From the NCBI GenBank assembly GCA_016184125.1, contig JACPDG010000043.1, positions 15,882 through 79,881 of the forward strand: a DNA stretch of 64,000 bases. The letters run 5' to 3'. Under the pieces are notes generated by a model. The model worked only from the letters and a program-made list of their open reading frames with translations. It was not told the origin of the DNA and did not search any database. Positions 10,775 to 62,629 of the stretch are shown piece by piece. This DNA comes from Candidatus Rokuibacteriota bacterium (GTDB lineage: Bacteria > Methylomirabilota > Methylomirabilia > Rokubacteriales > CSP1-6). Made by a program: the position numbers and the translations under genes. Within the stretch, counting starts at the first letter, position 1, and every line of letters begins with the position of its first letter.

Positions 10775-12565
10775 TCAGTCGTACGCTCCGTCGAGATACC
10801 ACTCGCCGGTCATCCGGTCGCGCGCGAGACGGCACAGCATGCCGTCCGCGAGCGCGACGTCCCACTCCTCGCGCGCCCACCCGTTCGTCGTCCACCACTC
10901 GCCCGACGTGCGCCACGGCCCTGCGCTCGCGACGATCGCTTGCGGGCGTGACACACCACCGAGCGCGTCGTGGAACGCCACCTGCACCGGCGCGTCATCC
11001 ACGAGCGTGACGTCGACCCGGCGCGGCGGCCGAACACGCCGGAACGCGAGCGGCATGGTCGGCAGCGACCGCGGCGCGCCCGCATCAGCGTCCGCCCCGG
11101 ACGTCGATGGCACCGTGGCGTCACCGTCGCCGTCCCACACCGGCACCTCGCCGTCGTCGCCGTCCCGCCACGCGTCGTCGTCCGAGAGTTCGAGCAACAA
11201 TCGACCGCCGGGCGGTCGATTGTTGGCTCGAACTGAGTCGGCGACGCGCGGCGGCGCGAACGGCACGAGCGTCACCGGATCGGCGCGATGCGAGTCGAGG
11301 ATCACCGGCGAGCCGACGTTGTCGCGGCCGACGAGCGTCGCGAGCCGGACCAGCGTCTCGGTCAGGTCGCGCAGCGCGGGACCGGGACGTTCGCCGAGCC
11401 TCGCCTGCGCCGCCTCCGCGCGGACGGCGCGCGCGCTCACCGCGACGCGGGTGACCGGCGCCGAGGGTGGACGCGCCTCGAGCTCGAGCGCGACGAGGAC
11501 CAGCATCGGCCGTGGATCGCACGACGGCGACGCGAGCGCCACCGTGCGCACATCGTGGGCGCCGCTCGCGAGCGCGAGCTCGAGCCGCAGCGTGTCGGCC
11601 GACACGTGCCCGGCGGCAAGACGCGCCGTGAGCCGCTCGAGCAGCTGCCGGAGCATCGGCTCGAGCCCGCTCCACGTGTCGACCTCCCAGTCGAGCCCCT
11701 GCGCTTCCTGCCAGAACGGCGGCGGCGACCACGGCCGGAACGCTGTCCGGTCGTGGCCGAGCGCCTCGTCCTGCGCGTCGAGCCCTGCCCGGCCGAGCCG
11801 CGTTCCGAGGCCGTCACGAGGCAGCGCCGCGAGCTCGCCGAGCGTCACGACGCCCCAGCGCGCGAACGTCTCGGCGAGCGGCGGCGCCAGATCGAGGACG
11901 GCGAGCGGCACCGCGCCGAGCGCGTCGCGCTCACATCCAGGCGGGACGACGTGGCAGCGGGACGCGATGGACGTCTCCGCAGGCTCAGGGCCCGTGAACG
12001 CATCCGCGGATCGAGCCGCACGCAAACCCGAGGAGCGCCGCGGGTCCCCCGCGGCGCTTCCGAGCGCGGGGGGTTTGGGGGGCTTCGTTAGTCCCCCCAT
12101 GATGGAGAGTCCGGCGATGCGCGCGGCCGTCCGGGTCCCCGCCACGCCGACGGTCGCGTCGAGCCCGACGCCGCGCGCGGCGCGCACGAGCCGCTCCGCG
12201 ATGCGCCCGTCGTCTCCGAGCAATCGCGCGAGCCCGGCGAGGTCGACGGAGACGATCCCTGGCCCGCCGTCTTCCACGCGTGGCGACACCCCGAGCGCGG
12301 CTTCGAGCAGCGCGTGCTGCGCGAGCGTGGCGCGCTCGTCGGACACGGCGCGGACCGCGAGCGCGACGCAGCGGGCGCGTGCTTCGGTCTCCGTCATCCC
12401 CGGCACGACACCCGCGGCGCGAGCAGCATCGCTCGCCTCGACGATGCGCCGCGCGGGCGGCGTCCCCGTCACCACCGCCAGGGGTCGATCCCGCAGGTCC
12501 GGCTCGCACCGCGCGTGCGCGGCCGCGGCGAAGTGGTCGACGAGCAGGCAGCCGAAGCGGTTCAT
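10775..12565 (-). CDS. imuB: ImuB (Y-family polymerase-like mutasome subunit), carrying two in-frame repeat-derived insertions
   Basis: MNRFGCLLVDHFAAAA...UmuC-like N-terminal domain. ATGA overlap with the imuA stop. The ORF remains open through a family A copy (12039-12103) and a family B palindrome (11186-11236). Confidence 0.8.
   Translation of the reverse strand: MNRFGCLLVDHFAAAAHARCEPDLRDRPLAVVTGTPPARRIVEASDAARAAGVVPGMTETEARARCVALAVRAVSDERATLAQHALLEAALGVSPRVEDGGPGIVSVDLAGLARLLGDDGRIAERLVRAARGVGLDATVGVAGTRTAARIAGLSIMGGLTKPPKPPALGSAAGDPRRSSGLRAARSADAFTGPEPAETSIASRCHVVPPGCERDALGAVPLAVLDLAPPLAETFARWGVVTLGELAALPRDGLGTRLGRAGLDAQDEALGHDRTAFRPWSPPPFWQEAQGLDWEVDTWSGLEPMLRQLLERLTARLAAGHVSADTLRLELALASGAHDVRTVALASPSCDPRPMLVLVALELEARPPSAPVTRVAVSARAVRAEAAQARLGERPGPALRDLTETLVRLATLVGRDNVGSPVILDSHRADPVTLVPFAPPRVADSVRANNRPPGGRLLLELSDDDAWRDGDDGEVPVWDGDGDATVPSTSGADADAGAPRSLPTMPLAFRRVRPPRRVDVTLVDDAPVQVAFHDALGGVSRPQAIVASAGPWRTSGEWWTTNGWAREEWDVALADGMLCRLARDRMTGEWYLDGAYD
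11186..11236. repeat. family B 50-bp palindrome, copy B1, inside imuB
   Basis: GAGTTCGAGCAACAATCGACCGCC-GG-GCGGTCGATTGTTGGCTCGAACT; encodes ...ANNRPPGGRLLLE... in frame. Confidence 0.8.
12039..12103 (-). repeat. family A repeat, copy A3 (reverse orientation), inside imuB
   Basis: Reverse complement reads CCATCATGGGGGGACTAACGAAGCCCCCCAAACCCCCCGCGCTCGGAAGCGCC; encodes ...SIMGGLTKPPKPPALGSAAG... in frame. Confidence 0.75.
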
Positions 12566-13146
12566 GCGCTGAACCGCGCGGCTCCGGGCCACGCGCGGGC
12601 ACGCGGATGGCGTGCCGCGTGCGGCCGCAGGAGGTGCAGCCGCGTGCGCATGGCGGCGAGTCGCGTCGCTCGCGTCCCCGGCCCGGTCCACTCGAGCGCG
12701 TCCTGCACGGTCTCGATCACGAGCGCGGCGCCGGAGCCGGCGACATGACGGCGGCCGAGCAGGACCAGGGCTGCGCGCGTGCGTCGCACCGCGAGCTTGA
12801 GCCGGAACGCGGTCTCGAGCGAGAGCCGCGGCGGCACGTCTCCCGTGTCGAGCGCGACGAGCGCGAACCCGGGGCGACGGACGAGCACGTCGGTCGCGCG
12901 CAGCGCGACCGACCGGCGTCCGGCGCACCGCACCCACAGCAGGCGCCGGAGGTCGACGCCCGCACGCGCGGCCGCGGCGGGATCGAACGCCTCGTCGGTG
13001 TCGACGAGCCCCGCCACGCCGCCGTTCGCGGTGGCGCGCGCAAGCCACGCGAACAGGAGACTCGTGCGGCCGGAGGAGAGCCGGCCGACGATCTCGGTGA
13101 TCTCCGAGAGAGGCGGAAACTCGGGATACATCGCATTTACCTGCAC
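12562..13146 (-). CDS. imuA: ImuA (RecA-fold SOS mutasome component)
   Basis: GRLSSGRTSLLFAWLARATANGGVAGLVDTDEAFDP is a RecA/SulA-like P-loop-degenerate core. Sits upstream of imuB-dnaE2. Confidence 0.8.
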   Translation of the reverse strand: MQVNAMYPEFPPLSEITEIVGRLSSGRTSLLFAWLARATANGGVAGLVDTDEAFDPAAAARAGVDLRRLLWVRCAGRRSVALRATDVLVRRPGFALVALDTGDVPPRLSLETAFRLKLAVRRTRAALVLLGRRHVAGSGAALVIETVQDALEWTGPGTRATRLAAMRTRLHLLRPHAARHPRARAWPGAARFSA

Positions 13147-13183
13147 GCAGCGCGCGGCGCAGCCACATAGCGTCGTGCATGCC

Positions 13184-13203
13184 CGTGATCTATCCTTATC
13201 ACG
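13184..13203. promoter_or_regulatory. palindrome CGTGAT-N8-ATCACG, 38 bp upstream of imuA; candidate SOS (LexA-type) operator
   Basis: Perfect 6-bp inverted arms in the divergent imuA/oxidoreductase promoter region. It does not match any LexA consensus I can name, so this is inference only. Confidence 0.3.
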
Positions 13204-13384
13204 TGTTGAGTGTTGCGCAAGACCGCAGATATCGGGGCGTGGTTCCGGCGTGCCGCTACATCCTGTGTTCCTGGCGCATCGGGTGATCTCGGCCCCGGGG
13301 TAGCGTCACCGTGCGCTGTCGCACGACCACTGGCCTTCGCCTTGCAGTCCTGATGAAAAAAACACGTTCGTGGGAAGCAAGGAG

Positions 13385-14467: not shown

Positions 14468-14553
14468 CGCGGCGAGCGGCGCGCGCGCCGGGGGCCGGAC
14501 GGGCGCGCGCGTCGCAAGCAGTCACGTTACCGGCCAAGGGAGGAACCAGACCC

Positions 14554-17398: not shown

Positions 17399-17407
17399 GC
17401 GTCCATA

Positions 17408-17487
17408 GAAGTGGGGGGCCCCGAAATGGCCCCCCACACCCCCCCGCGCTCGGAAGCGGCCCGGGAAACCCGGGCCGCTCCTCGACG
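17408..17487 (+). repeat. family A repeat, copy A4
   Basis: GTGGGGGGCCCCGAAATGGCCCCCCACACCCCCCCGCGCTCGGAAGCGGCCCGGGAAACCCGGGCCGCTCCTCGAC. Confidence 0.85.
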
Positions 17488-17489
17488 TC

Positions 17490-17570
17490 CCGCTCGGCTC
17501 GGGTGCCGACATCCCCCGCGCGGAAGCGGCCCGGGCACGGCTCGGGTGCCGACATCCCCCGCGCGGGCGT
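17490..17570 (+). repeat. tandem direct repeat (2 x ~44 bp) GCTCGGGTGCCGACATCCCCCGCGCGG
   Basis: Two near-identical units at 17496-17522 and 17540-17566, immediately following A4. Confidence 0.7.
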
Positions 17571-20308: not shown

Positions 20309-20370
20309 CTTCCCCGGAGGGGGCTGCGCCCCCCGTCCGGAACTCAGAGAGTCAGTGAACGAATCCGGTC

Positions 20371-20467
20371 TCGAGCCGCGCCCCGGGTCCACGGGTGCGT
20401 CCGCGCACCCCCCCGGGGCGCGCGCGAGCGCGGGGGGCTTGGGGGGCATCGATAGTCCCCCCATGAA
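20371..20467 (-). repeat. family A repeat, copy A6 (reverse), with an extra palindromic insert GGGTGCGTCCGCGCACCC
   Basis: Reverse complement reads GTTCATGGGGGGGACTATCGATGCCCCCCAAGCCCCCCGCGCTCG...CCCGGG. The same GGGTGCGTCCGCGCACC module recurs at 19357-19400 and 42580-42605. Confidence 0.75.
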
Positions 20468-21164
20468 CTCGGTGAAGCGCACGCGCACGGTGTTCGAGAC
20501 GCGCTCGGAGGTGTCGGGGCGGATCCGCGTGCTCGACGACGGGCGGCTGCGGCGCCTCATCGTCGCCGGGGACACGCTATCGACCTATCCGCTCGACGGG
20601 GACTGGTCGAGGCTCGCGCGCGAATACTGGTGGAAGGCCGTCGAGGGCGTCCACGTGCCGCCGCGTCCGACGGTGCTGATGGTCGGACTCGGCGGCGGCA
20701 CGCAGATCCACCTGGTGCGCCGCATCGCACGGCCGCGCCGGATCACCGTGATCGAGCGCGATCCGGTGATCGTCGACGTGGCGCGCGTGTGGTTCGGCCT
20801 CGATGCCATGCCGGGGCTCGAGGTGTGCTGCGGGGACGCGGCGGACATCCTTCCGGGCCTGGCGCGGCTCGGACGCCACTTCGACTTCATCATGGAGGAC
20901 GCCGCCTACGGTCTCGAGGTCGAGGGCGCGATCGATCTCGCTCGCGCGCTCGCGGGCCTCGTGAGCCCGCGAGGCACGCTCGTGCTCAACCGGCACTGGC
21001 GGCGGGACGCGACGCAGGTGCGCGACACGCTCGTGCCGTTCTTCCGCAAGGTGTGGATGCGCCGGGTCAAGCGCGAGGGCGAGAACGTGCTGATCTTCTG
21101 CGCCCGCCCCCGCGGCGGGGCATCGAGGAGCGCCCCGGGTCCCCCGGGGCGCTTCCGAGCGTAG
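20463..21164 (+). CDS. spermidine-synthase-like class I methyltransferase-fold protein
   Basis: VLMVGLGGGT...ITVIERDP...D(A)AD motifs of the spermine/spermidine synthase fold. The C-terminal ~15 aa are encoded by family A copy A7. Confidence 0.7.
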   Translation: MNSVKRTRTVFETRSEVSGRIRVLDDGRLRRLIVAGDTLSTYPLDGDWSRLAREYWWKAVEGVHVPPRPTVLMVGLGGGTQIHLVRRIARPRRITVIERDPVIVDVARVWFGLDAMPGLEVCCGDAADILPGLARLGRHFDFIMEDAAYGLEVEGAIDLARALAGLVSPRGTLVLNRHWRRDATQVRDTLVPFFRKVWMRRVKREGENVLIFCARPRGGASRSAPGPPGRFRA

Positions 21165-21196
21165 GGGGTTTGGGGGCCATGTCGGGGCCCCCATGA
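21121..21196 (-). repeat. family A repeat, copy A7 (reverse), wedged between convergent genes
   Basis: Reverse complement reads GATTTCATGGGGGCCCCGACATGGCCCCCAAACCCCCTACGCTCGGAAGCGCCCCGGGGGACCCGGGGCGCTCCTCGATG. Abuts the ettA stop codon. Confidence 0.85.
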
Positions 21197-21198
21197 AA

Positions 21199-22872
21199 TC
21201 AACCCAAGCGTTTGTAGCGCAGGCGGTGCGGCCGGTCCGCCTCGGCACCGAGGCGGCGCCGCCGATCGGCCTCGTAGTCCTGGTAGTTGCCCTCGAACCA
21301 GACGGTCCGGCCCTCGTCCTCGAGCGCCAGCATGTGCGTCGCGATGCGGTCGAGGAACCACCGGTCGTGGCTGATCACGACGACGCAGCCCGCGAAGTCG
21401 AGCAGCGCGTCCTCGAGCGCGCGCAGGGTGTCGACGTCGAGATCGTTCGTCGGCTCGTCGAGCAGGAGGAGATTCGCGCCGCTCCTGAGCGTCTTCGCGA
21501 GGTTGAGCCGGTTGCGCTCGCCGCCGGAGAGCTCGCCCACGCGCTTCTGCTGGTCGGTGCCGCGGAATCCGAACGAGGCGACGTACGCGCGCGACTGCAT
21601 GCTCCGGCCACCGACGGTGAACGTGTCGTGCCCGCCCGAGGTCTCCTCCCACACCGTGCGCGCCGCGTCCAGCGACTCACGCGTCTGGTCGACGTACCCG
21701 ATCTTCACGGAGGCGCCCACGCGCAGCGCGCCGCCGTCCGGCGGTTCCTGGCCCACGATCATCCGGAACAGGGTCGTCTTGCCGGCGCCGTTCGGACCGA
21801 TGACGCCGACGATGCCGCCGCGCGGGAGCTTGAACGTGAGGTCGTCGATGAGCACGCGGTCGCCATAGCCCTTCACGAGGTGATCAGCCTCGACGACGAC
21901 GTCGCCGAGCCGCGGCCCGGGCGGGATGGAGATCTCGAGTCCCGTCTCGCGCTTCTCGGTCCCCTCGGACAGGAGCGTGTCGTAGGCCTGCAGCCGCGCC
22001 TTCGACTTGGCCTGCCGGGCGCGCGGCGCCATGCGCACCCACTCGAGCTCGCGCTCGAGCGTGCGCCGGCGCGCGAGGTCGGCCTTTTCCTCCCGCGCGA
22101 GCCTCTGGCGCTTCTGGTCGAGCCAGGACGAGTAATTCCCCTCCCACGGGATGCCGTACCCGCGGTCGAGCTCCAGGATCCAGCCGGCGACGTTGTCGAG
22201 GAAGTAGCGGTCGTGGGTCACCGCGACGACGGTGCCCGGATACTCCTTGAGGAACCGCTCGAGCCAGGCCACGCTCTCCGCATCGAGGTGGTTCGTCGGC
22301 TCGTCGAGCAGCAGCATGTCCGGGCGCGAGAGCAGCAGCCGGCACAGTGCGACGCGCCGCCGCTCGCCGCCCGAGATCGTCGCGACCTCGGCGTCACCGG
22401 GCGGCACGCGCAGCGCGTCCATGGCGAGCTCGACGGTGCGATCCACCTCCCAGCCGTTCACCGCCTCGATCCGGTCCTGCAGTCGCGCCTGCTCCTCGAG
22501 CAGCTTGTCCATGTCCGTATCGGACATCTCCTCGGCGAAGCGCGCGCTGACGTCTTCGAAGCGCTGGAGCAGCGCCCGCGTCTCGGCGACGCCTTCCTCG
22601 ATGTTGCCGCGCACGTCCTTCGCGGGATCGAGCGCCGGTTCCTGGGGCAGGAAGCCGACCCGCAGGCCCTTCGCCGGAAACGCCTCGCCGAGGAAGTCCC
22701 GGTCGGCACCGGCCATGATCCGCAGCAGCGACGACTTCCCCGCCCCGTTCGCGCCGAGCACGCCGATCTTGGCGCCGTGGAAGAACGACAGGTAGATGCC
22801 GCGCAGGATCTCGCGCTTCGGCGGGACGACCTTGCGAAGGTCCTTCATGACGAACGCGTACTCGCCGGCCAT
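21199..22872 (-). CDS. ettA: energy-dependent translational throttle protein EttA (ABC-F ATPase)
   Basis: [23 protein letters not shown]...two ABC cassettes (GANGAGKS / [13 protein letters not shown] signatures) with the arm insertion; 557 aa. Confidence 0.95.
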
Positions 22873-23979: not shown

Positions 23980-23992
23980 GGTACCGCCTGGA

Positions 23993-24068
23993 GTGGGGGG
24001 CCCCGACATGGCCCCCCACACCCCCCAGCGCTCGGCAGCGCCCCGGGAAACCCGGGGCGCTCCTCGAC
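23993..24068 (+). repeat. family A repeat, copy A8
   Basis: GTGGGGGGCCCCGACATGGCCCCCCACACCCCCCAGCGCTCGGCAGCGCCCCGGGAAACCCGGGGCGCTCCTCGAC. Confidence 0.85.
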
Positions 24069-24078
24069 TTCCGTCTAG

Positions 24079-25185
24079 CTAACCGCCGCGCGAAGGGCTG
24101 TGCGCGCTCTCGAGCACGGCGAGGAGCTCGTGACCGAACGTCTCCACGCGCCAGCGCCTGAGCCCCTCCACGCCCTCGAGCGCGGCTCGCGTGCGAGGCG
24201 CCGTCTCCGCGAGCTGCGCGATGAGCCGGTTGGGCAGCAGGGCGCCGGGATCGAGGTCGTAGCGCTCCGCCGCTTGCGTGCGCCAGCGCTTGAGCAGCTC
24301 GCTCCGCCGGGCCAACGCCGCCGACCCCGCAGGACGGCGCGGACGGTCGCGGACCGGCAGGCTGGATTCGGGCAGCGCACGCCCGCGCGCGATGGCGTCG
24401 AGCAGCGCCCCACCCCACCGTCCCACGACGCGCGGCGTGCAGCCCGGGACGCCGCCGAGCTGCTCGAGGTCCCCGGGCATGGTCAGCGCGATGCGGAGGA
24501 GCGCCTCGTCTCCCAGCACCTTGAACGGCGGGCGGTCGGCCGCGCGCGCCAGTCGCTCCCGGGTCTCGTGGAGCTCGCGCAGGATGGCGAGGATGCGCGG
24601 CGGCAGGTCGCGGGCGCCCTTCACGCGGAGGAAGGCGTTCGGGTCCGGCGACCGGTCGGGCGGCGGCTGCGCCGCCAGCGCCGCGCACTCCTCTTCGACC
24701 CACGCGAGCCGTCCCCGGCCCACGAGCTCCTCCGTGAGCCGTGCCCTGAGCGCGAACAGATGTTGGACGTCGGCGGCGGCGTACGTCTCCTGCTCGGGCG
24801 AGAGCGGGCGCGCCGACCAGTCGTCCTTCTGCCGCGATGGCGGCAGAAGGACGCCGAGCCACGACGTCAGCAGGGCGTCGAGCCCGAGCGTGCGCACGCC
24901 GAGGAACCTTGCCGCGATCGCGGTGTCGAACACCGACGCGAAGGTGAATCCGTAGCGGGCCTTGAACTCCGCGAGGTCGTTGTCGCCGGCGTGGAGCACG
25001 AGCACGACGCCGGGGTCGGCGAAGACGCGCCCGAGCGGCGCCAGGTCGACGGCGAGCGGATCGACGAGGGTGACCTCGCCGCTCGGCTCGGCGACCTGCA
25101 CGAGCGCGAGCCGTGCCGGATAGTGATGCAGGCTGTCGCCCTCGGTATCGACCGCGATCTCGGGCGCGACCGCGAGGCGGCGCAC
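24079..25185 (-). CDS. rnd: ribonuclease D (DEDDy 3'-5' exonuclease plus HRDC domain)
   Basis: IAVDTEGDSLHHYPARLALVQVA...YAAADVQHL...HRDC-like C-terminus. The true start may lie slightly upstream of 25185. Confidence 0.85.
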   Translation of the reverse strand: MRRLAVAPEIAVDTEGDSLHHYPARLALVQVAEPSGEVTLVDPLAVDLAPLGRVFADPGVVLVLHAGDNDLAEFKARYGFTFASVFDTAIAARFLGVRTLGLDALLTSWLGVLLPPSRQKDDWSARPLSPEQETYAAADVQHLFALRARLTEELVGRGRLAWVEEECAALAAQPPPDRSPDPNAFLRVKGARDLPPRILAILRELHETRERLARAADRPPFKVLGDEALLRIALTMPGDLEQLGGVPGCTPRVVGRWGGALLDAIARGRALPESSLPVRDRPRRPAGSAALARRSELLKRWRTQAAERYDLDPGALLPNRLIAQLAETAPRTRAALEGVEGLRRWRVETFGHELLAVLESAHSPSRGG

Positions 25186-29292: not shown

Positions 29293-29302
29293 GCGGACCT
29301 CC

Positions 29303-29378
29303 TTCATGGGGGGACTATCGAAGCCCCCCAATCCCCCCGCGCTCGGAGCCCCCCGGCAAAGCCGTGGCGCTCCTCGAC
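29303..29378 (+). repeat. family A repeat, copy A9
   Basis: TTCATGGGGGGACTATCGAAGCCCCCCAATCCCCCCGCGCTCGGAGCCCCCCGGCAAAGCCGTGGCGCTCCTCGACC. Confidence 0.85.
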
Positions 29379-29408
29379 CACCGCCTTCGGTTCACGGGCT
29401 CTCACCCC

Positions 29409-29484
29409 CTTCATGGGGGGACTATCGAAGCCCCCCAATCCCCCCGCGCTCGCACACGCCCCGGGGAACCCGGGGCGTGGCTCG
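29409..29484 (+). repeat. family A repeat, copy A10 (tandem with A9)
   Basis: TTCATGGGGGGACTATCGAAGCCCCCCAATCCCCCCGCGCTCGCACACGCCCCGGGGAACCCGGGGCGTGGCTCGA. Confidence 0.85.
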
Positions 29485-29485
29485 A

Positions 29486-30685
29486 TTACACCACAGCCTT
29501 CTTCGCCCGGAGCGAAGCGATGTCGGCGTCCGAGTAGCCGAGCTCCGCGAGGACCTCGTCGGTGTGCTCGCCGCGCATCGGCGCGTGCCGGCGGATGTCC
29601 GGGTCGATCTCCGAGAACGACACGGGGAATCCGACGACCGGGATGTCGCCGAGCTTGGGGTGCGCCATCCGGCGGATGACGGCGCGGCCCTGCGTCTGCG
29701 GATCCGACAGCGCCTGGCCGACGCTGTTGACCGGCGTGGCGGGCACGCCCGCATCGTCGAGGAGCTTGATGAGCGCGTCGCGGTCGTACCCCGCGATCGC
29801 GTCGCCGACGAGCTGCTCCAGCTCCGTGCGGTGCTTCACGCGCTCGATGTTGACCGCGAAGCGCGGGTCGTCGGCCATCCACTCGAGCCCGAGCGCCGTG
29901 GCGAGGCGCCGCCACAACCGGTCGTTCGCGCCCGCGATGAAGACCCACTGGCCGTCGGCGCAGCGGAAGTTGCGGTACGGAGACAGGGCCGGGTGCGCGG
30001 AGCCGAGCGCCTGGGGGACTTTTCCGACCAGCAGGTAGCCTTCGGCCTGGAAGTTCATGAGCCCGACGGCGGTCTCGAGCAGCGAGCCGTCCACGCGCTG
30101 GCCGCGGCCCGTCTGCGCGCGGTGGTGCAGCGCGGACACGACGCCGAGCGCGCACAGGATCCCGGTCGTGAGGTCCAGGAACGACACGCCGCACCGCACC
30201 GGTGGACCGCCCGGCTCACCGGTGATCGACATGATCCCGCTGAACGCCTGCATGAGCGCCTCGTACCCGGCACCCGCGGCGCGGGGCCCGGTGCGCCCGA
30301 AGGCCGAGACCGAGCAGTAGATCAACCGCGGGTTCATCGCCGAGAGCGCGTCGTACCCGAGACCGAACTCCTCCATGGTCCCCGTGCGGAAGTTCTCGAT
30401 CAGCACGTCGGCGTCCCGGGCGAGCTTCCGGACGATCTCGACGCCTTCCGGCGTCTTCAGGTCGACCGAGATGCCGCGCTTGTTGCGATTGTTCACGAGG
30501 TACCCCGCCGCCTCGCCGTCCTTGTGGGGCGGCCAGGTGCGGGACTCGTCGCCGACCGTGGGGTCCTCGATCTTGATGACGTCGGCGCCGAGATCGCCGA
30601 GGAGCGCGCCGCAGAACGGGCCGGCGAGGACGCGGGAGCAGTCGATGACGCGGAGACCGGCGAGAGGCGGGCGGTTCGTGGCCAT
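29486..30685 (-). CDS. family III CoA-transferase (CaiB/BaiF/Frc-like)
   Basis: MATNRPPLAGLRVIDCSRVLAGPFCGALLGDLGADVIKIE...; 399 aa. Confidence 0.9.
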   Translation of the reverse strand: MATNRPPLAGLRVIDCSRVLAGPFCGALLGDLGADVIKIEDPTVGDESRTWPPHKDGEAAGYLVNNRNKRGISVDLKTPEGVEIVRKLARDADVLIENFRTGTMEEFGLGYDALSAMNPRLIYCSVSAFGRTGPRAAGAGYEALMQAFSGIMSITGEPGGPPVRCGVSFLDLTTGILCALGVVSALHHRAQTGRGQRVDGSLLETAVGLMNFQAEGYLLVGKVPQALGSAHPALSPYRNFRCADGQWVFIAGANDRLWRRLATALGLEWMADDPRFAVNIERVKHRTELEQLVGDAIAGYDRDALIKLLDDAGVPATPVNSVGQALSDPQTQGRAVIRRMAHPKLGDIPVVGFPVSFSEIDPDIRRHAPMRGEHTDEVLAELGYSDADIASLRAKKAVV

Positions 30686-34138: not shown

Positions 34139-36174
34139 TGCTGACGGGACGCGGCGCCACGCGGCGCGGCAGCTTCCTGATCGCCGTCGGCGTGTGCGCC
34201 CTGATGGGCACGGTGTGGTTCCTCGCGCCGGCGATGCTCACGCAGGCCGACTTCGCGCTGTACGACCAGCATTTCCGCTGGCGCGGCGCCCGGCCGGGTC
34301 ACCCGCAGGTCGCGATCGTCGCCATCGACGAGCCGAGCCTGCGCGCCATCGGGCGATGGCCCTGGCCGCGCACGGTGCTCGCCGAGCTCATCCGGCGCCT
34401 CGACGAGGCGGGCGCGGCGGCGATCGGCGTCGACGTGATCCTGAACGAGCCGGAGCGGAGCGGCGAGCTCGAGGCGGCGACGCGGCTGCGCGAGCGCCTG
34501 CGGGCGGTGGGCGCGCCGGCCGCCGTGCTGCGCGAGGTCGACGCGACGATCCAGGCCGCTGATCACGACCGGATGCTGGCCGACGCGATCGCCGCGAGCG
34601 GCCGCGTCGTCCTTCCGAGCCTGTTCAACGTCAGTATTGAGCCGCCCAAGCAGGCGCCGGAACGCGTTGGCCAGCCGTTCAAGTCCGCGCTCGTGCGGTT
34701 CAAGCAGTACGACGACCGCGGCCTGTTCCCACCGGTCAACGCGGACAGCGTCGGCCTGCCGATCCCACCGCTGCTGGCTGCGGCCCAGGGAGTCGGCCAC
34801 GTCTACATGCTCGCCGACTCGGACGGCACGACGCGGTGGGAGGCGCTCGCCATCGAGTACCGCGGGCACTACTATCCCAGCCTTGCGGTGGAGACGGTGC
34901 GCGTCGCCGCCGGGCTCGAGCCCACCGCCCTGACGCTCGACTTCGGCACCGCGCTCGTGCTCGGCGATCTCGAGATCCCCATCGACGCGCGGGCACGAGT
35001 GCTCATCGGATACGCCGGCCCCGTGCACTCCTTCCCGCACCATTCCGCCGCGGATGTCCTGGCCGGCCGCGTCCCGCCCGAGCGCCTCCGCGATCGCATC
35101 GTGTTCGTCGGCGCGACGGCGGAAGGCACGTACGACCTGCGAGTCACGCCGTTCTCGCCCGTCCTCCCCGGCGTCGAGAAGCACGCGAACGTCGCGGCCA
35201 ACATCCTCGACGGGCGCTTCCTCGTGCGGCCGCCGCTGGTCGAGCTCTTCGAGGTGCTGGCCGCCGTGGCGCTGCCGTTCCTGCTCGCCTGGCTGCTCCC
35301 GCGCCTGCGTCCGATCCCGAGCGTCGGGGTGACGCTCGTCCTCGGCGCCGCGGTCCTCGGCGGGGCGCACCTGGCCTTCCGGCAGGGCCTCTGGCTGCCC
35401 GCGGTCTACCCGGCGGTCGCGATCGCCGTCACGTTCGTCGGCGTGACCGTCTTTCGGTTCTTCACCGAGGAGCGCCAGCGGCTCTGGACGAAGCGCGCGT
35501 TCCAGCAGTACGTCAGCCCCGAGGTCGTCGACCGGATCGTCGAGGATCCCGCCGCGCTCCAGTTCGGGGGCGAGGTGCGGAACCTGACCGTCCTCTTCGT
35601 CGACATCCGCGACTTCACGGGCTTCACCGAGCGGCACGATCCCCACGAGGTCGTGGCGATGCTGCGCGAGCACTTCACGCGCCTCACGAACCGCGTCCTC
35701 GAGGAGGGCGGCACGCTCGACAAGTACATCGGGGACGCGATCATGGCGATCTTCGGTGCGCCGGTCCCGGCCGCGGACCACGCGGAGCGGGCGTGCCGCG
35801 CCGCGTGGAGAATGGTCGAGGAGGCGGAACGCCTGCGAGACAAGTGGCAGGGCGAGGGGCGCGAGCCGTTCCGGATCGGTGTCGGGATCAACACGGGCGA
35901 CATGGTCGTCGGCAACCTCGGCTCCGAGCAGCTCTTCACGTACACCGTCGTCGGCGACGAGGTGAACCTCGGCGCACGGATCGAGACGCTCAACAAGGAG
36001 CACGCGACGACGCGCCCGATCATCATCAGCGAGTCGACGTACGAGGCCGCGCGTAACGCGATCGAGGCGCGGGTGCTCGGGGAGGTCAAGGTGCGCGGCA
36101 AGACGCGGCCCGTCGTGATCTACGAGCTCACCGGTCTTCGGTCGCCGACGCCCGAGCCGCAGGTCCCCGCGTAA
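34138..36174 (+). CDS. CHASE2 sensor domain plus class III adenylate/guanylate cyclase
   Basis: N-terminal CHASE2 (periplasmic) with TM helices, then a cyclase homology domain (VLFVDIRDFTGFTE...GDAIMAIFG...GINTGDMVVGNLGS). ATG overlaps the metH TGA (ATGA). Confidence 0.9.
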
Positions 36175-36180
36175 CGCGCG

Positions 36181-36313
36181 GGGGCGGGGGACGGGGCGGG
36201 GGCCCCTCGGAAATCCGCGCGCGGACCACGGCCGGCGTCCCACAACAGCCGGACTTCGAGGTCGACCTTAGCCCAACGGATTTCCGAGGGGCCCCCGCCC
36301 CGTCCCCCGCCCG
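36181..36313. repeat. TIR-bearing MITE-like element E1 (37-bp terminal inverted repeats GGGGCGGGGGACGGGGCGGGGGCCCCTCGGAAATCCG)
   Basis: Perfect inverted termini flank a ~60-bp core; starts 7 nt after the cyclase stop. Confidence 0.7.
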
Positions 36314-36422
36314 GGCGCTTCCCGCGCACCCGCCGTCATCCGCCCGCCGCGCTGAGTCCGTCCACTCACCGACCGCGACCGGCCGTGTGACGCGCTGGCT
36401 TCGGCAACCCGCGTACTTCCCC

Positions 36423-36692: not shown

Positions 36693-36820
36693 GGCGGGCG
36701 GCGGGAGGGGACTCCCTCAGAAATCCGTTGGCCTAAGGTTGACCTCGGAGTGCGCGCGTTGTGCGACTCCCGGCGTGGTACGGGCGCGGATTTCTGAGGG
36801 AGTCCCCTCCCGCCGCCCGC
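36693..36820. repeat. TIR-bearing MITE-like element E2 (35-bp TIRs GGCGGGCGGCGGGAGGGGACTCCCTCAGAAATCCG); diverged copy of E1 in opposite orientation
   Basis: Core is ~75% reverse-complementary to the E1 core (shared ACCACGCCGG...CACAAC...GAGGTCAACCTTAGGCCAA); ends 12 nt before the cytochrome c stop. Confidence 0.7.
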
Positions 36821-36831
36821 CGGCCTCGCGC

Positions 36832-39084: not shown

Positions 39085-39321
39085 ATGGCTCGGAGTCGTT
39101 GGCGTGAGTACTGGTGCGACGTGGTGTCGGAGGGTGTCGAGATCCGGCTCCGCCGTCCCGGGGGTTTCGGGCAGCCGCGCGGATACTTCGTGCAGTGCAA
39201 CCAGAGCGAGTGTCAGTACGTCGAGGACAACAAGCCGCCATGCCCGCTGCACATCGGGATGTTCAGCGATGAGATCCGCGCGCTCGAGGAGACTCGCTCG
39301 CAGCGCGTCAGCGGCGACTGA
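39085..39321 (+). CDS. small hypothetical Cys-containing protein (78 aa)
   Basis: AAGGAG ribosome-binding site; YWCD...CNQSECQY...CPLH pattern; no family recognised. Confidence 0.4.
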   Translation: MARSRWREYWCDVVSEGVEIRLRRPGGFGQPRGYFVQCNQSECQYVEDNKPPCPLHIGMFSDEIRALEETRSQRVSGD

Positions 39322-39323
39322 GA

Positions 39324-39410
39324 ACATCGGGGGGCCGCGACGGCCCCCCGAACTCCCCCCACGCTCGCACACGGCCCGGCGGAGCCGGGCCGCGGCTCGG
39401 GAACCGGATT
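39324..39410 (+). repeat. family A repeat, copy A11 (diverged)
   Basis: CATCGGGGGGCCGCGACGGCCCCCCGAACTCCCCCCACGCTCGCACACGGCCCGGCGGAGCCGGGCCGCGGCTCGGGAA. Confidence 0.7.
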
Positions 39411-39427
39411 GCTTCACGGGCTCTGAG

Positions 39428-39495
39428 ATCATGGGGGGCCCGAGATGCCCCCCCAACGCTCGCCGGGTCCGGGGTGAACCCGGGCCCGCCTCGAT
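39428..39495 (+). repeat. family A repeat, copy A12
   Basis: ATCATGGGGGGCCCGAGATGCCCCCCCAACGCTCGCCGGGTCCGGGGTGAACCCGGGCCCGCCTCGA; abuts the stop of the downstream minus-strand gene. Confidence 0.75.
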
Positions 39496-39710
39496 CACCG
39501 CTTCTTCGTCGCGTCGTAGATCGTACCAGCCGCCGCACCAACGCCCGTACCGATGAGCGCCCCCTTGCCGGCGCCCGCGCCTGTCCCGGCCCCGATCGCC
39601 GCACCCGCGCCGGCACCGACGGCCGCGCCCGTGAGCGTGCCGCAGGCGGCCGTGACGAGCGCGAGCAGCGTGACGCCGACGATCGGTGCGAGGATTCGCT
39701 TCGTGGCCAT
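39495..39710 (-). CDS. glycine-zipper small lipoprotein
   Basis: LLALVTAAC lipobox followed by GAAVGAGAGAAIGAGTGAGAG glycine-zipper TM-like repeats. Confidence 0.55.
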   Translation of the reverse strand: MATKRILAPIVGVTLLALVTAACGTLTGAAVGAGAGAAIGAGTGAGAGKGALIGTGVGAAAGTIYDATKKR

Positions 39711-42537: not shown

Positions 42538-43383
42538 TCAGCGCCCCTGAACGAATCGCGCCCTCGAGGGCCGTCCCGGGTTCCGCGGGTGCGTCCGCGC
42601 ACCCCCCGGGACGGCTCCGAGCGCTGGGGGCCGGGGGAGTCCGAGGGGGGCGTCAGCCCCCTTCGTGCGATGGTCGGGGGCCATGTCGGGGCCCCCCATG
42701 ATCTCAGTTCGAGCGACAATCGACCGCCGCGGCGGTCGATTGTCGCTCGAACTCTCAGACGTCACCCCGGCCCGCGTCCCACGACGGCGCACGCGGAACG
42801 CGCGCACCGCGCCGGCCAGGCGCACGCCGAGCAGCACGGCGAGGATGGCCGCGTACACGTACGGCTCGATGCGCCCGACCTTGGCGAGCCACATGAAGTG
42901 CAGCACGCCCAGCACGGCCGCGACGTACACGATGCGGTGGAGCCGGCGCCATGCCCGCGCGCCGAGACGCTTCACCATCCCGGACGTCGACGTCGCGGCG
43001 AGGAGGACGAGCAGCGCGAGCGCCGAGACGCCGACCGTGATGTACGGCCGCTTCACGATGTCCGCGCCCATCTGCGCCCACGCGAAGAAGTGGTCGAGCA
43101 CGACCCAGACGAGGAAGTGCAGCGACACGTAGAAGAACGCGAACAGCCCGAGGAGGCGGCGGAGGATCAGCGGCCAGCCGATGCCGAGCACGAGACGCAG
43201 CGGTGTGAGGGCGAGGCTCGCGAGCAGCATCCGCATGCCCCAGCGACCCAGCGTGTCGGTGACGAAGTCGATGGGGTTCGCGGTCAGGTCGCCCGTCCAC
43301 GCGCGCCAGGCCAGCAGCGCGAGCGGTACCAGGCAAGCGCCCCAGACCAGGGTCTTCAGCAGGATTCGCCCGCGTCGCGTCAC
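42538..43383 (-). CDS. msrQ: MsrQ (heme-binding membrane subunit of the MsrPQ methionine sulfoxide reductase), with ~70-aa repeat-encoded C-terminal extension
   Basis: Six-TM ferric-reductase-like core (FFYVSLHFLVWVVLD...HRIVYVAAVLGVLHFMWL). The ORF stays open through B2 and A13 to a stop at 42538. Confidence 0.75.
   Translation of the reverse strand: MTRRGRILLKTLVWGACLVPLALLAWRAWTGDLTANPIDFVTDTLGRWGMRMLLASLALTPLRLVLGIGWPLILRRLLGLFAFFYVSLHFLVWVVLDHFFAWAQMGADIVKRPYITVGVSALALLVLLAATSTSGMVKRLGARAWRRLHRIVYVAAVLGVLHFMWLAKVGRIEPYVYAAILAVLLGVRLAGAVRAFRVRRRGTRAGVTSESSSDNRPPRRSIVARTEIMGGPDMAPDHRTKGADAPLGLPRPPALGAVPGGARTHPRNPGRPSRARFVQGR
42560..42702 (-). repeat. family A repeat-derived block A13 (two partial reverse copies including the GGGTGCGTCCGCGCACC module)
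   Basis: CCCGGGTTCCGCGGGTGCGTCCGCGCACCCCCCGGG...GGGGGCCATGTCGGGGCCCCCCATGATCTC. Confidence 0.65.
42707..42754. repeat. family B palindrome, copy B2
   Basis: AGTTCGAGCGACAATCGACCGCC-GC-GGCGGTCGATTGTCGCTCGAACT; carries a compensatory C-G change relative to B1 and B4. Confidence 0.8.
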
Positions 43384-43404: not shown

Positions 43405-44379
43405 TCAGTAGTTCTTCTTGAGATCCATGCCTGCATAGAGCGAGGCCACCTGGTCCGCGTACCCGTTGAACATCAGCGTCTGCCGGCGGCGAAACTCGCC
43501 GATCCGCCGCTCCGTTGCCTGGCTCCACCGGGGGTGGTCCACCGACGGGTGCACGTTCGAGTAGAAGCCGTACTCCCGGGGTTGCGCCTTCGCCCACGCC
43601 GTCTGCGGCTGCTCGCTCACGAGCCGAATCCTGACGATCGACTTCGCGCTCTTGAAGCCGTACTTCCACGGCACCACGACGCGCACGGGCGCGCCGTTCT
43701 GATTCGGCAACACCTTGCCGTACATGCCGACGGTGAGCAGCGCCAGCGGGTGCATCGCCTCGTCGAGCCGGAGCCCCTCGACGTACGGCCAGTCGAGGCC
43801 CGACATGCTGAAGCCGAAGACCCCCTTCTTCTGCGCCGGGAACTGTTCCGGGTCGAGGAGCGTCTGGAACTCCACGAACTTCGCCTGGCCGGTCGGCGCC
43901 ACGCGCTTCAGGAGAGCGGACAGCGGGTAGCCGATCCACGGGATCACCATCGACCAGGCCTCGACGCAGCGGAGCGCGTACACGCGCTCCTCGAGCGGCG
44001 CCAGCCGGAGCAGCTCCTCGATGTCGAACGTCCCGGGCTTCGCGACGTGTCCCTCGACCACGACCTGCCAGGGCCGCGGCTTCAGCGTGCCGGCGAGCCG
44101 CGCGGGATCTTCCTTTTCGACGCCGAACTCGTAGAAGTTGTTGTACGTCGTCGCGGACTCGATCTTCGTCGGCGAATCGGCATGCCGGTACCTCGGGTTC
44201 GGCGCGGCCGGGAGGGCCGCGAGCTGCGACACGGGCGGCGGCGGACCGGCCTCCGCGCGCCCGGGGAACAGCGCGAGCGCGGCGGCGCCGGCGATCAGCT
44301 CGCGCCGGTTGAGATAGAGCCTCTCGTCCGTGACCTCCGACCATCGGAAGCGCGGCGCCTGGCGAATCAGCATCGACAA
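43405..44379 (-). CDS. msrP: MsrP (molybdopterin-dependent protein-methionine sulfoxide reductase catalytic subunit, YedY-like)
   Basis: Tat-type leader ([14 protein letters not shown]); sulfite-oxidase-fold Mo-binding core (YNNFYEFG...[14 protein letters not shown]). Confidence 0.9.
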
Positions 44380-44402
44380 CCTCCTGCTCTCGTCAGCTTC
44401 TC

Positions 44403-44450
44403 AGTTCGAGCAACCATCGACCGCCGCGGCGGTCGATGGTTGCTCGAGTT
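44403..44450. repeat. family B palindrome, copy B3
   Basis: TTCGAGCAACCATCGACCGCC-GCG-GCGGTCGATGGTTGCTCGAG, with a compensatory CC-GG pair. Lies between the response-regulator stop and the msrP start. Confidence 0.75.
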
Positions 44451-44451
44451 C

Positions 44452-45129
44452 TCACACGGCGAAACGGTAGCCCTGCGCGTGGACCGTCTGGATCCACACG
44501 GGATGATCGGGATCGGTCTCGAGCTTCTTCCGGAGCCTGAGCACGTGCGTGTCGACCGTCCGGGTCGTCGGGAACCGCTCGTACCCCCACACCTCGTCGA
44601 GCAGGCGCTCGCGCGTCAGCACGTCGCCACGGTGCTCGACGAGGTGGACGAGGAGATCGAATTCCTTGCGCGTCATCGCGAGCTCGCGTCCCGCCTTGAA
44701 CACGCGGCGAGCGCGCCGGTGGATCCGCACGTCGCCGAACTCCAGGTCCTGCGACTTCTCGCGCGGACCCGGCCGGCGCAGGACGGCGCGCACCCGCGCC
44801 AGCAGCTCCCGCAGGGAGAACGGCTTCGTGACGTAGTCATCGGCGCCGAGCTCGAGGCCCAGCACCCGGTCCATCTCCTCGCCGCGCGCCGAGAGCATGA
44901 TGACGGGCACCTCGATGCCCTTCTTCCTGAGCTCCCGGCACACGTCCCAGCCGCTCATGACGGGCATCATGATGTCGAGGACGACGAGATCCGGCGCCGC
45001 GCTCGCCGCGAGCGCCAGGGCGTCGGCGCCGTTCGTCGCGGTCAGTGTCTCGTATCCCTCGAAGCGCAGATTGTCCTCGAGGCCCCGCACGATCTCCGGC
45101 TCGTCGTCGACGATGAGGATGCGTGGCAT
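44452..45129 (-). CDS. OmpR-family response regulator
   Basis: MPRILIVDDEPEIV...winged-helix C-terminus (YRFAV). Confidence 0.9.
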   Translation of the reverse strand: MPRILIVDDEPEIVRGLEDNLRFEGYETLTATNGADALALAASAAPDLVVLDIMMPVMSGWDVCRELRKKGIEVPVIMLSARGEEMDRVLGLELGADDYVTKPFSLRELLARVRAVLRRPGPREKSQDLEFGDVRIHRRARRVFKAGRELAMTRKEFDLLVHLVEHRGDVLTRERLLDEVWGYERFPTTRTVDTHVLRLRKKLETDPDHPVWIQTVHAQGYRFAV

Positions 45130-50643: not shown

Positions 50644-51145
50644 CGCACCGCCACGGTAGCCAGCAAACGGGGGGCGGTCAAGCGCCGGCCAGCGGCGGCC
50701 GGCAATGCGCCCACGGCCGCGCCGCCTCGAGCTGCGCGGCCAGCCGCAAGAGCGTCGCCTCGTCACCGAACCGCGCCATGAACTGGACGCCGATCGGCAC
50801 ACCGTCGGTGTTCCGGGAGAGCGGCACGGACATCGCAGGCTGGCCCGTCACGTTGGCGAACGCACGACCAGCTCGCTGTGCTCACTCGGCACGAAGTCCG
50901 CGAGGAAGTCGCTCGCCTCCGTGAGCGGAACCCCGGCGTACTCGGCGAGGAGGTCCTTCAGCAGGAACGGTACGCCGGCGAACGGCGCGTCCACGACCGG
51001 CCCCGCCGCCGCCCGGCGCGCGAGGTCGTACATCGGCGTGACGACGGCGTTGAGCGAGGGGTTCACCCGCTCGATCCGGGCGATCGTCGCCTCGAGCAGC
51101 TCGATCGCGCGGATCTCCTTCCGGCGGACTCATCGAGTCCCGGTC

Positions 51146-52378: not shown

Positions 52379-52659
52379 GGTCGCCGGAACGCACGCGCGG
52401 CGTACTCCATGAACCGGTCCTCGAGCTCGCTCGCGACCGCGTCCGCCACCTCCGCGGCCGGCCCGGGACGCTCCGCCGGCGTCGTGCGGCCCCACGCCGC
52501 CAGGTACTCCTCGGAATCCGCGAGCCCGAGCTGCATCGCGACGGAGTCGATCAACGCCTGCCACCGCTCCGAGAGCGGCCGGGTGCTCGTCTCGTGGTCG
52601 TCGCGCGCCTCGACGACGGCGGGGATCTCACGCCAGGTGATGATCTCGTAGGTCGCCAT
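52375..52659 (-). CDS. hypothetical protein (94 aa)
   Basis: MATYEIITWREIPAVVEARDD...; no family recognised; coupled to the MFS gene. Confidence 0.45.
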   Translation of the reverse strand: MATYEIITWREIPAVVEARDDHETSTRPLSERWQALIDSVAMQLGLADSEEYLAAWGRTTPAERPGPAAEVADAVASELEDRFMEYAARAFRRP

Positions 52660-52664
52660 CTCAA

Positions 52665-52741
52665 ATCATGGGGGGACTATCGAGGCCCCCCAAGCCCCCC
52701 ACGCTCGGCGGCGGCCCGGGGAACCCGGGCCGCCCCTCGGG
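52665..52741 (+). repeat. family A repeat, copy A14
   Basis: ATCATGGGGGGACTATCGAGGCCCCCCAAGCCCCCCACGCTCGGCGGCGGCCCGGGGAACCCGGGCCGCCCCTCGGGAA. Confidence 0.85.
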
Positions 52742-52767
52742 AATCCGATGCGCTCACAGGCTCTCCG

Positions 52768-56440: not shown

Positions 56441-56467
56441 CCCGGTGACCTCCCCACCCGAGGCGCG

Positions 56468-60031: not shown

Positions 60032-60053
60032 GGGCGGACCTCCCGTGTGACGG

Positions 60054-61604: not shown

Positions 61605-61620
61605 CGAGGCGTCCCTCCCA

Positions 61621-62244: not shown

Positions 62245-62302
62245 GCCGCCCTCCCAGTCGATGCGACTCGCGCCCACCATACACGAGGCGCGACCGACCG
62301 AT

Positions 62303-62380
62303 ATCATGGGGGGCCCCGAGATGGCCCCCCATACCCCCCACCGCTCGGAACGGCCCCGGCGCAGCCGCGGCCGTCCTCGG
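62303..62380 (+). repeat. family A repeat, copy A16
   Basis: ATCATGGGGGGCCCCGAGATGGCCCCCCATACCCCCCACCGCTCGGAACGGCCCCGGCGCAGCCGCGGCCGTCCTCGGGAA. Confidence 0.85.
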
Positions 62381-62395
62381 GAACGCGCTGCGTGC

Positions 62396-62468
62396 TCGGA
62401 GCCCCGACATGGCCCCCCATACCCCCCACCGCTCGCCGGGCCCGGGGTCAACCCGGGCCCGCCTCGAC
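62396..62468 (+). repeat. family A repeat, copy A17 (tandem with A16; lacks the CATGGGGGG head)
   Basis: GGAGCCCCGACATGGCCCCCCATACCCCCCACCGCTCGCCGGGCCCGGGGTCAACCCGGGCCCGCCTCGAC. Confidence 0.8.
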
Positions 62469-62581
62469 ACGCCGAGTCGTTCACGGGGGATCAGCCACGA
62501 CGGGGTCGCGAGCCGTTCTTCTCTCGAGCAGCTTGGAGACGCCTTCGACGACGCGCTCGAACAGCTTCCGGAGGCCGCCTC

Positions 62582-62629
62582 AGTTCGAGCCAACAATCGA
62601 CCGCCCGGCGGTCGATTGTTGCTCGAACT
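62582..62629. repeat. family B palindrome, copy B4
   Basis: AGTTCGAGCCAACAATCGACCGCC-CG-GCGGTCGATTGTTGCTCGAACT; ends 2 nt before the stop of the minus-strand lipoprotein gene. Confidence 0.8.

Follow-up and report, generated by a model that had tools for sequence, protein, structure and literature searches.

A 48-bp palindromic repeat with GAG flanks, probably a small mobile element, in a Candidatus Rokubacteria genome

Background

Why should nearly the same hairpin of 48 nucleotides recur four times in a short stretch of a bacterial chromosome, close to the 3' ends of genes and, in one case, within a coding sequence? The question is raised by a 64,000-nucleotide stretch of DNA (hereafter, the window; positions 15,882 to 79,881 of contig JACPDG010000043.1, 90,250 bp, assembly GCA_016184125.1), with a GC content of 71%, from a metagenome-assembled genome (MAG) of Candidatus Rokubacteria (Methylomirabilota). 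The four palindromes, here called family B, were noticed in a first-pass annotation, which took them for hairpins maintained by selection that could act as terminators, RNase III sites or transposase substrates. We propose, with moderate confidence, that family B consists of small palindromic repeats that are mobile and non-autonomous, of the kind represented by the repetitive extragenic palindromic (REP) sequences and the MITEs (miniature transposable elements with inverted repeats). As such, it is an insertion element of a conventional type, small and palindromic, that had not been described before. The best evidence that family B is an insertion comes from three features that were missing from the first-pass annotation: the GAG flanks, the 51-nucleotide in-frame unit and the empty sites present in relatives.

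Four copies of a GAG-flanked palindrome

The existence of a hairpin family with four members is well borne out. A pattern describing the 23-nucleotide arm, with up to 3 mismatches allowed, matches six times in the window versus 0.01 times expected from shuffled sequences, and an nhmmer profile of the four copies, run against the window, retrieves exactly these four (E ~1e-19). The next best profile match has an E-value of only 0.27; therefore, there are no degraded family B copies within the 64 kb. This count (n=4) covers the window and is not a genome-wide one. The only ungapped palindromes of the window with stems of at least 16 bp are found among the family B copies. B3 and B4 lie exactly where they had originally been placed, while the limits of B1 and B2 had to be corrected, from 11186-11236 and 42707-42754, respectively, to those listed in Table 1.

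Table 1. Coordinates of the family B copies, of the genes around them and of other repeats (positions are those of the window unless a locus is named)
Feature	Coordinates	Strand	Remarks
Copy B1	11184-11237	+	48-nt near-perfect palindrome 11187-11234; GAG at 11184-11186 and 11235-11237
Copy B2	42703-42756	-	Perfect 48-nt palindrome 42706-42753 between GAGs
Copy B3	44400-44453	-	48-nt near-perfect palindrome 44403-44450 between GAGs
Copy B4	62579-62632	-	48-nt near-perfect palindrome 62582-62629 between GAGs
imuB	10775-12565	-	Y-family polymerase-like gene, imuA'-imuB-dnaE2 cassette; PF00817, PF11799
msrQ, ORF as annotated	42538-43383	-	281 aa, P0121; homology to orthologues stops at about residue 209
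msrP	43405-44373	-	P0123, 100% identity; B3 upstream, B2 downstream
Family A copy 1	1568-1659
Family A copy 2	10673-10774
Family A copy 3	12013-12104	-	In frame in imuB
Family A copy 4	17402-17506
Family A copy 5	20348-20473	-
Family A copy 6	21116-21201	-
Family A copy 7	23988-24080
Family A copy 8	29302-29401
Family A copy 9	29408-29502
Family A copy 10	39317-39424
Family A copy 11	39423-39500
Family A copy 12	42543-42708	-	Abuts B2 as a neighbour of a different family; C-terminal tail of the msrQ ORF
Family A copy 13	52658-52764
Family A copy 14	62297-62399		Second copy near B4
Family A copy 15	62396-62490	+	92 nt from B4, separate from it
Palindrome sharing the inner 10-mer	L033:1395-1442		Other genome
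Palindrome sharing the inner 10-mer	L043:5978-6030		Other genome
Palindrome sharing the inner 10-mer	L064:3905-3956		Other genome
Palindrome sharing the inner 10-mer	L074:4106-4147		Other genome
Palindrome sharing the inner 10-mer	L032:717-757		Other genome
Palindrome sharing the inner 10-mer	L027:2008-2046		Other genome

Written in a common orientation, B1 and B4 both read GAG AGTTCGAGCAACAATCGACCGCC G GGCGGTCGATTGTTgGCTCGAACT GAG, B2 reads GAG AGTTCGAGCGACAATCGACCGCC GC GGCGGTCGATTGTCGCTCGAACT GAG and B3 reads GAG AACTCGAGCAACCATCGACCGCC GC GGCGGTCGATGGTTGCTCGAACT GAG. All four had been described as perfect palindromes, which is true of B2 only: B1 and B4 carry a 1-nucleotide bulge (an extrahelical base), and B3 has two unpaired positions close to the outer end of the stem (AACTC versus GAACT). 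The predicted RNA folds have energies of -40 to -50 kcal/mol and z-scores of -6.8 to -9.9, on both strands. Read on the opposite strand, B1 matches B4 exactly, over 54 nucleotides. Since these two copies are the same sequence in opposite orientations, the family comprises three distinct sequences and not four. B1 and B4 lie 51 kb apart, inverted relative to each other and within unrelated flanks; their identity therefore points to recent copying.

GAG is found on either side of all four copies (8/8 flanks), giving the overall pattern (T/C)GAG-palindrome-GAG. The base that precedes the left GAG is T in three copies and C in B1. With T accounting for ~14% of the bases, the occurrence of T in 3 of 4 left flanks has, by our own calculation, a p value of ~0.01. 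This excess could reflect a preference for YGAG targets or the survival of insertions made at TGA-G stops. The repeated unit (48 + 3 nucleotides) is 51 nucleotides long, i.e. 17 codons; being a multiple of three, it never shifts a reading frame upon insertion. In the orientation that it adopts in imuB (reverse), family B is open in all three frames and never introduces a stop codon. In the other orientation, one frame has a TGA at both ends.

The nearest pair, B2 and B3, is separated by 1.65 kb, in the same orientation. All four copies are singletons, and no inverted doublets of the type called REPINs were found among them. B1 and B2 alone have the tetranucleotide CGTC, 1 nucleotide upstream of the left GAG; at B3, the bases at this position belong to the host flank. 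Outside the GAGs, the host flanks of B1 (GTCG.CCGA / TCGGCGAC) and B4 (GCCGC / GCGGC) form inverted repeats (11177-11246 and 62572-62639, respectively), so that these two copies may have landed in the middle of small pre-existing palindromes. The flanks of B2 and B3 beyond the GAGs show no such mutual pairing.

Insertion sites and empty sites

Copy B3 provides the most precise view of an insertion. It lies between the stop codon of a response-regulator (RR) gene (TGA, 44454-44452), which overlaps its left GAG, and the start codon of msrP (ATG, 44373). It ends 30 nucleotides before this ATG and the Shine-Dalgarno sequence is intact at 44384-44380. For the comparison, we used MsrP-anchored metagenome loci with RR-msrP-msrQ synteny. 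When 51 nucleotides (48 + GAG) are taken out at B3, the window reads ...GCCGTGTGAG^AAGCTGACGAGAGCAGGAGG...ATG (the caret indicates the point of insertion), which restores GTGAG^AAGCTGA. The corresponding empty site, with the consensus GTGAG^A(T/A)(A/G)(C/G)TGA and one uninterrupted TGAG each, is found in loci L081, L082, L085, L088 and L160. It reads ...GCGTGTGAG^ATAGTGACG...GGAG...ATG in both L085 and L088, which continue past the site as ...GTGACGGCAA and ...GTGACGAGAG, respectively, GACGTGAG^ATGCTGA in L081, CTCGTGAG^ATGCTGA in L082 and GGTGTGAG^ATGCTGG in L160. In these syntenic relatives, GTGAG^A occurs once and runs on without interruption, which makes B3 a precise insertion.

The two closest MsrP relatives (84% identity; JGI 3300056388 and 3300043331) were compared by their gene tables. 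In these, RR and msrP overlap by 7 nucleotides, MsrQ has 216 residues and the gap to the gene for an M16 peptidase is 50-71 nucleotides long, which, as far as gene tables can tell, leaves no room for B3 or B2. In the window, the RR-msrP spacer is 78 nucleotides long, the extra length being due to B3, and the distance from the ancestral-type msrQ stop (see below) to the ATG of the M16 peptidase gene is 276 nucleotides, owing to B2 together with a copy of another repeat, family A. The RR-msrP-msrQ-M16 synteny holds in relatives without family B and, judging from this gene order, the position of msrP is ancestral, not one brought in by the repeats.

The annotation of msrQ requires some comment at its 3' end. 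MsrQ orthologues have 211-221 residues, and the homology of the window protein to them breaks off at ...GVTS(E). The annotated ORF runs on through B2 (translated as SSSDNRPPRRSIVART) and then into the family A copy, so that the part of the protein past the homology is encoded by B2 and family A. The TGA beside B2 is out of the annotated frame. An alternative frame at the 3' end reads ...AVVGRGPG-TGA, with the stop at 42764-42762, which matches the end of MsrQ in L160, ...AVVAGPR-stop. A frameshift near 42790-42765 (region 42762-42800, minus strand), whether mutational or introduced by an indel during assembly, is thus the probable origin of the long ORF. On the frameshift reading, B2 lies 6 nucleotides past an ancestral-type msrQ stop. 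For MsrP and MsrQ, as encoded in the window, proteins with 100% identity have been deposited at NCBI under the name Candidatus Rokubacteria bacterium (accession MBI2217010.1 in this set).

B4 starts 1 nucleotide past the TGA stop (62633-62631) of a gene for a 98-aa putative lipoprotein (62927-62631), and B3 lies at the same distance from the RR stop. Thus, the initial placement of the copies (three at the 3' ends of genes or at their junctions, the fourth within imuB) stands. This intragenic copy, B1, is antisense to imuB and is translated in frame as S444-L460 (SVRANNRPPGGRLLLEL) of the 596-aa ImuB, making a 17-codon in-frame insert in a hypervariable linker of the protein. ImuB orthologues are ~500 aa long and the B1 segment is absent in 10/10 of them. 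The nearest ImuB relative (P0004), which comes from the same JGI sample as the 84% MsrP relatives, is without B1 and its linker differs at this place. The window ImuB (P0001) is 100% identical to the deposited MBI2216981.1. A family A copy is also present in frame in imuB, at 12013-12104 (SIMGGLTKPPKPPALGSAAGDPRRSS...).

Searches for further copies and for an enzyme

In the GTDB representative genomes, among which the source genome is not included, the 20-nucleotide core of family B gave 78 matches, all of them single-copy and none with the outer arms. Six of the 78 lie in long (39-53 nucleotides) near-perfect palindromes that share the inner 10-mer ATCGACCGCC/GGCGGTCGAT and differ in their outer arms (Table 1). 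Their hosts are diverse MAGs, including Acidimicrobiia, Haliangiales, Azospirillales and Xanthobacteraceae. The sharing of this 10-mer by unrelated palindromes is probably due to chance, given the many long hairpins in 596 Gb; hairpins of ~50 nucleotides seem to be common in GC-rich soil genomes. The JGI metagenomes contained no match to a specific pattern of 28 bases, a one-arm pattern found only half-matches (n=15) in IMG/VR, and plasmid blastn gave no family B match. No copy of family B was found in 21 kb of the syntenic relative L160 or in any of the other fetched loci.

At the protein level, the six-frame B peptides matched, among 5.8 billion proteins, only the MsrQ of the window (E = 1), by a method that is too insensitive for 17-aa segments. 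A phmmer search with B2 and the family A tail against 1.84 billion representatives led to a single match, P0122. This match spans residues 15-50 of the query, in which the B part ends at residue 19; it is essentially a match to the family A part and contains no B peptide.

Several points weigh against a mobile element. The evidence base consists of four copies and three distinct sequences, and since no copy was found outside the window in these collections (the DNA ones not including the source MAG), family B may be very small. Pfam scans of ~50 ORFs of the window, which are ordinary chromosomal genes, revealed no Y1 transposase, no REP-associated tyrosine transposase (RAYT) and no other transposase, and no parent insertion sequence (IS) with matching ends is known, from plasmids or from IMG/VR. 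The empty site is precise to the nucleotide in one case only (B3), and MsrP of the relatives used is no more than 73-84% identical. Finally, the flanking GAGs could be part of the element and not a target duplication; because the target is always GAG, a true duplication and an element-borne GAG are not separable.

Proposed mechanism and relation to known repeats

What was observed is the repeat family with its GAG flanks, an empty site that is precise in one case, an insertion that keeps the reading frame, and the same sequence at loci otherwise unrelated. From these we infer mobility in trans, the class of the enzyme and an effect on RNA. The mobile unit would be a 48-bp hairpin, made of two abutting inverted arms of 23-24 bp, that arrives with one extra GAG, each event adding 51 bp at a (T/C)GAG site. 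The extra GAG would either have arisen by duplication of 3 bp of the target or have been carried by the element, inserted in that case 3' of a GAG target. With a length that is a multiple of three and three open frames in one orientation, insertions would survive after TGA-G stops and in tolerant coding linkers. The moving enzyme, acting in trans, might be a DDE transposase that reads the arms as terminal inverted repeats (TIRs), or an HUH/Y1 enzyme (RAYT or IS200-like) that reads the folded single strand.

In a narrower version of the latter option, family B would be a REP in the strict sense, i.e. a single-stranded DNA hairpin moved by a RAYT (TnpA_REP) or by an IS200/IS605-type HUH Y1 transposase, with GAG in the role of GTAG or of the TTAC-type target. 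Indeed, family B resembles the REP/REPIN-RAYT systems in being a short dispersed hairpin with a short unpaired tag at the foot of the stem, and in the compensatory changes within the stem (PMC3733652). A survey of tagged REPs showed that most copies are no more than 20 bp away from the end of the upstream ORF, with tags overlapping stop codons, and that intragenic copies are concentrated in DNA synthesis/repair genes, including dnaE2 (PMC3733652). Similarly, family B copies are mostly located a few bases from the 3' end of the upstream ORF, with an overlap of tag and stop (TGA-G in family B versus G-TAG in REPs), and REPs and family B alike have in-frame copies in DNA repair genes, including those of an error-prone polymerase cassette: the host gene of B1, imuB, belongs to the same mutasome cassette as dnaE2. 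The in-frame inserts in imuB fit the published tendency of REPs for repair and mutasome genes (PMC3733652). The fixed short motif (YGAG) at the insertion, which recalls target use by IS200/IS605, and the extrahelical base of B1 and B4 also speak for a strict REP. However, the tag of family B is GAG, present on both sides, and neither GTAG nor CGTC; its stem is 22-24 bp long versus 8-15 bp in the REPs described, and its length is 48 nucleotides versus 20-40. Moreover, family B has four known copies (a density of 4 per 64 kb) and no doublets, Y1_Tnp is absent among the scanned ORFs of the window, with no RAYT seen there, and Methylomirabilota is not among the reported host phyla. A two-sided GAG fits a 3-bp duplication by a DDE enzyme equally well. 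A strict REP is, in our view, possible but unlikely.

The combination of a hairpin with an adjacent fixed motif and of insertion beside a specific 3-4-nucleotide target is also reminiscent of the IS200/IS605 family itself (IS608, ISDra2), in which insertion beside a specific short target would give the same flank pattern without a true duplication. The hairpins of these elements belong to units of 1.3-2 kb that carry a tnpA gene and whose left and right ends differ, whereas family B is a single symmetric hairpin with no tnpA nearby. With the MITEs (Correia/NEMIS, Chunjie, QMITE), family B shares TIRs of ~23 bp, flanking short direct repeats and a non-coding nature, as well as an intergenic or 3'-untranslated location, a stable transcript hairpin, clustering with other repeats and a precise empty site in relatives (PMC10969869). 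Structurally, it is a small non-coding multi-copy sequence with TIRs and a flanking direct repeat, as a MITE should be. It differs from the MITEs by having no core (TIR-TIR only), by its high GC content in a genome that is itself GC-rich (MITEs typically being AT-rich), by its size of 48 bp, at the extreme low end of the MITE range, and by having no known parent IS. The Rickettsia palindromic elements likewise are palindromic repeats found in frame within genes, where they add a peptide to a conserved protein (PMC10969869; PMC3733652). They are, however, ~100-150 bp long and encode a conserved peptide, while family B is 51 bp long, only 1 of its 4 copies is clearly intragenic, in a hypervariable linker, and its host is free-living and GC-rich. 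Since family B does not fit the strict REP definition, and since a MITE core and a known parent IS are lacking, it is described here as working like a REP/MITE and was not assigned to any named family. A bolder proposal is that it represents the founding member of a third kind of tagged REP-like element: GAG-tagged, with an unusually long stem (23 bp) and a fixed 51-nucleotide unit free of stops in one orientation, active in Methylomirabilota, moved by an HUH or DDE enzyme, and selected in size and frame for tolerance at stops and in proteins such as ImuB. We consider this a doubtful, speculative extension.

An alternative: the hairpin as a possible host-selected RNA element

An alternative explanation is that the hairpins are kept by the host for ending or processing transcripts, their dispersal being secondary. 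They might then be 'I-shaped' terminators that lack a U-tract, 3' stabilisers, or RNase III sites insulating msrPQ from the histidine kinase-RR genes and the M16 gene. The location of the copies is consistent with such a role, 3/4 of them lying directly downstream of ORF ends, in the sense strand, with msrPQ bracketed by B3 and B2. So are the very stable folds and the documented precedents of RNase III cleavage in Correia elements and of effects of REP and ERIC sequences on mRNA (PMC10969869).

The two compensated base pairs point in the same direction and deserve closer scrutiny. Over the three distinct sequences, 18 of the 22 pairs are invariant, 2 have changed on both sides and 2 are broken, both in B3. 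The symmetric substitutions are those initially described, with A-U replaced by G-C in B2 and by C-G in B3. By our own estimate, independent point mutation would produce both exact partner changes with a likelihood of ~4e-4; therefore, some symmetrising force is real, perhaps selection favouring a hairpin in single-stranded DNA or RNA, repair of one arm templated by the other, or amplification from different symmetric masters. A shuffle control equals the observed covariation value in 40/500 trials, owing to the little power that three sequences give. Thus, although the compensated pairs exist and are improbable under independent point mutation, the initial view of them as 'strong' evidence for selection on structure was overstated: two compensated pairs have to be set against two uncompensated ones and a bulge, among three distinct sequences, and copying at the DNA level is also possible. 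In B3, the broken pairs, which count against an RNA element, are A.C and C.A on the gene-sense strand; on the opposite strand they would be G.U and U.G.

Other observations also argue against an RNA element. None of the copies is followed by a U-tract, and a scan for terminators was negative. B1 lies antisense within a coding sequence, in which terminating or processing a transcript would do harm or be of no relevance. Relatives keep the operon without the hairpin, even with an overlapping RR/msrP junction. Identical copies and the duplication of GAG indicate that a preformed unit was inserted, and an Rfam scan of the whole window gave 0 matches at gathering score. Taken together, a host-selected RNA element appears quite improbable. 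If family B is a mobile repeat, as we prefer to think, its stem of 22-23 bp, once transcribed without a U-tract, would be a block to 3' exonucleases or an RNase III target and not an intrinsic terminator. By analogy with the Correia and REP elements, such a block or cleavage site in the RR-msrP-msrQ transcript is plausible, and the effect on mRNA ends would probably be a side effect, not the reason for the spread of the repeat.

That the palindromes are double-stranded sites bound by a dimeric protein (regulator, nucleoid factor or segregation factor) at several chromosomal positions is scarcely credible: the two-fold symmetry and the joint change of both half-sites in B2 and B3 would suit such sites, but 48 bp of continuous symmetry far exceed known operators, the copies are located past stops and in a coding linker and not in promoters (the scan finds no promoter-like site nearby), they are missing from syntenic relatives, and a fixed protein would not predict coordinated half-site change. 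The following candidates were rejected altogether. The factor-independent (Rho-independent) terminator suggested by the first-pass annotation does not agree with the lack of a T-run after any copy, on either strand, the scan finding none at B2 or B3. The termini AGTTCGAGC ... GCTCGAACT are opposite to the RYYYAAC ... GTTRRRY arrangement of an integron attC and fit its consensus poorly; besides, msrPQ is ancestral in relatives without family B. This ancestral synteny also rules out a composite transposon carrying msrPQ. An IR-IR junction of an IS circle is ruled out by the location of the palindrome, which is flanked by host genes and not by the interior of an IS, and an assembly or adapter artefact by the symmetric differences, the defined flanks and the preserved reading frames.

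Family A and other repeats of the window

Family A is a repeat of ~80-110 nucleotides (~165 in one case), in which a G6...C6 hairpin precedes another GC-rich one. Its 15 copies in 64 kb (Table 1) amount to ~1 per 4 kb. A composite A+B module, as had been suggested at first, is ruled out: the spacing between B and A varies (~0, 92, 413 and ~1,700 nucleotides) and family A occurs elsewhere without family B. The two families simply have scarce intergenic space in common, a sharing that has been reported for the pneumococcal BOX, RUP and SPRITE elements (PMC10969869). The clustering of MITE and REP families with one another is also documented (PMC10969869). Without family B, family A is found in frame in the MoaD/ThiS protein P0122 (MBI2215688.1), whose gene appears, from the accession numbering, to lie on another contig of the same MAG. 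Among the relatives, no family A copy is present in L160 (21 kb), and L079 and L081 have one weak copy each.

Families A and B both remodel gene ends in this MAG, family A being far more abundant. In practice, this matters mainly for annotation and for genome biology in an uncultured phylum: MsrQ (281 aa) and ImuB (596 aa), as deposited, both contain repeat-encoded segments that are absent in orthologues, which bears on the use of these protein models and on phylogenies built from them. Should many genome-wide copies and a cognate enzyme be found, the REP/MITE-type elements would be extended to Methylomirabilota, and the movement of hairpin repeats could be studied on family B as a very simple substrate (TIR-TIR, 48 bp).

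Two further features of the window were noted. The amidase gene at 50848-51129 (minus strand) codes for just a 93-aa N-terminal fragment, whereas the amidase of syntenic relatives has 360-477 aa; this is probably a pseudogene or the outcome of a deletion. In the gene-poor segment 34138-36832, two large hairpin elements (36168-36326 and 36693-36821) lie in inverted orientation, ~370 nucleotides apart. Near these, Rfam gives a sub-threshold RT-19 match only (E = 0.68). Each has a G/C-rich stem of 35-50 bp that ends ...GAAATCCG / CGGATTTC... round a 59-nucleotide loop, and the two may represent a third repeat family or a MITE-like pair.

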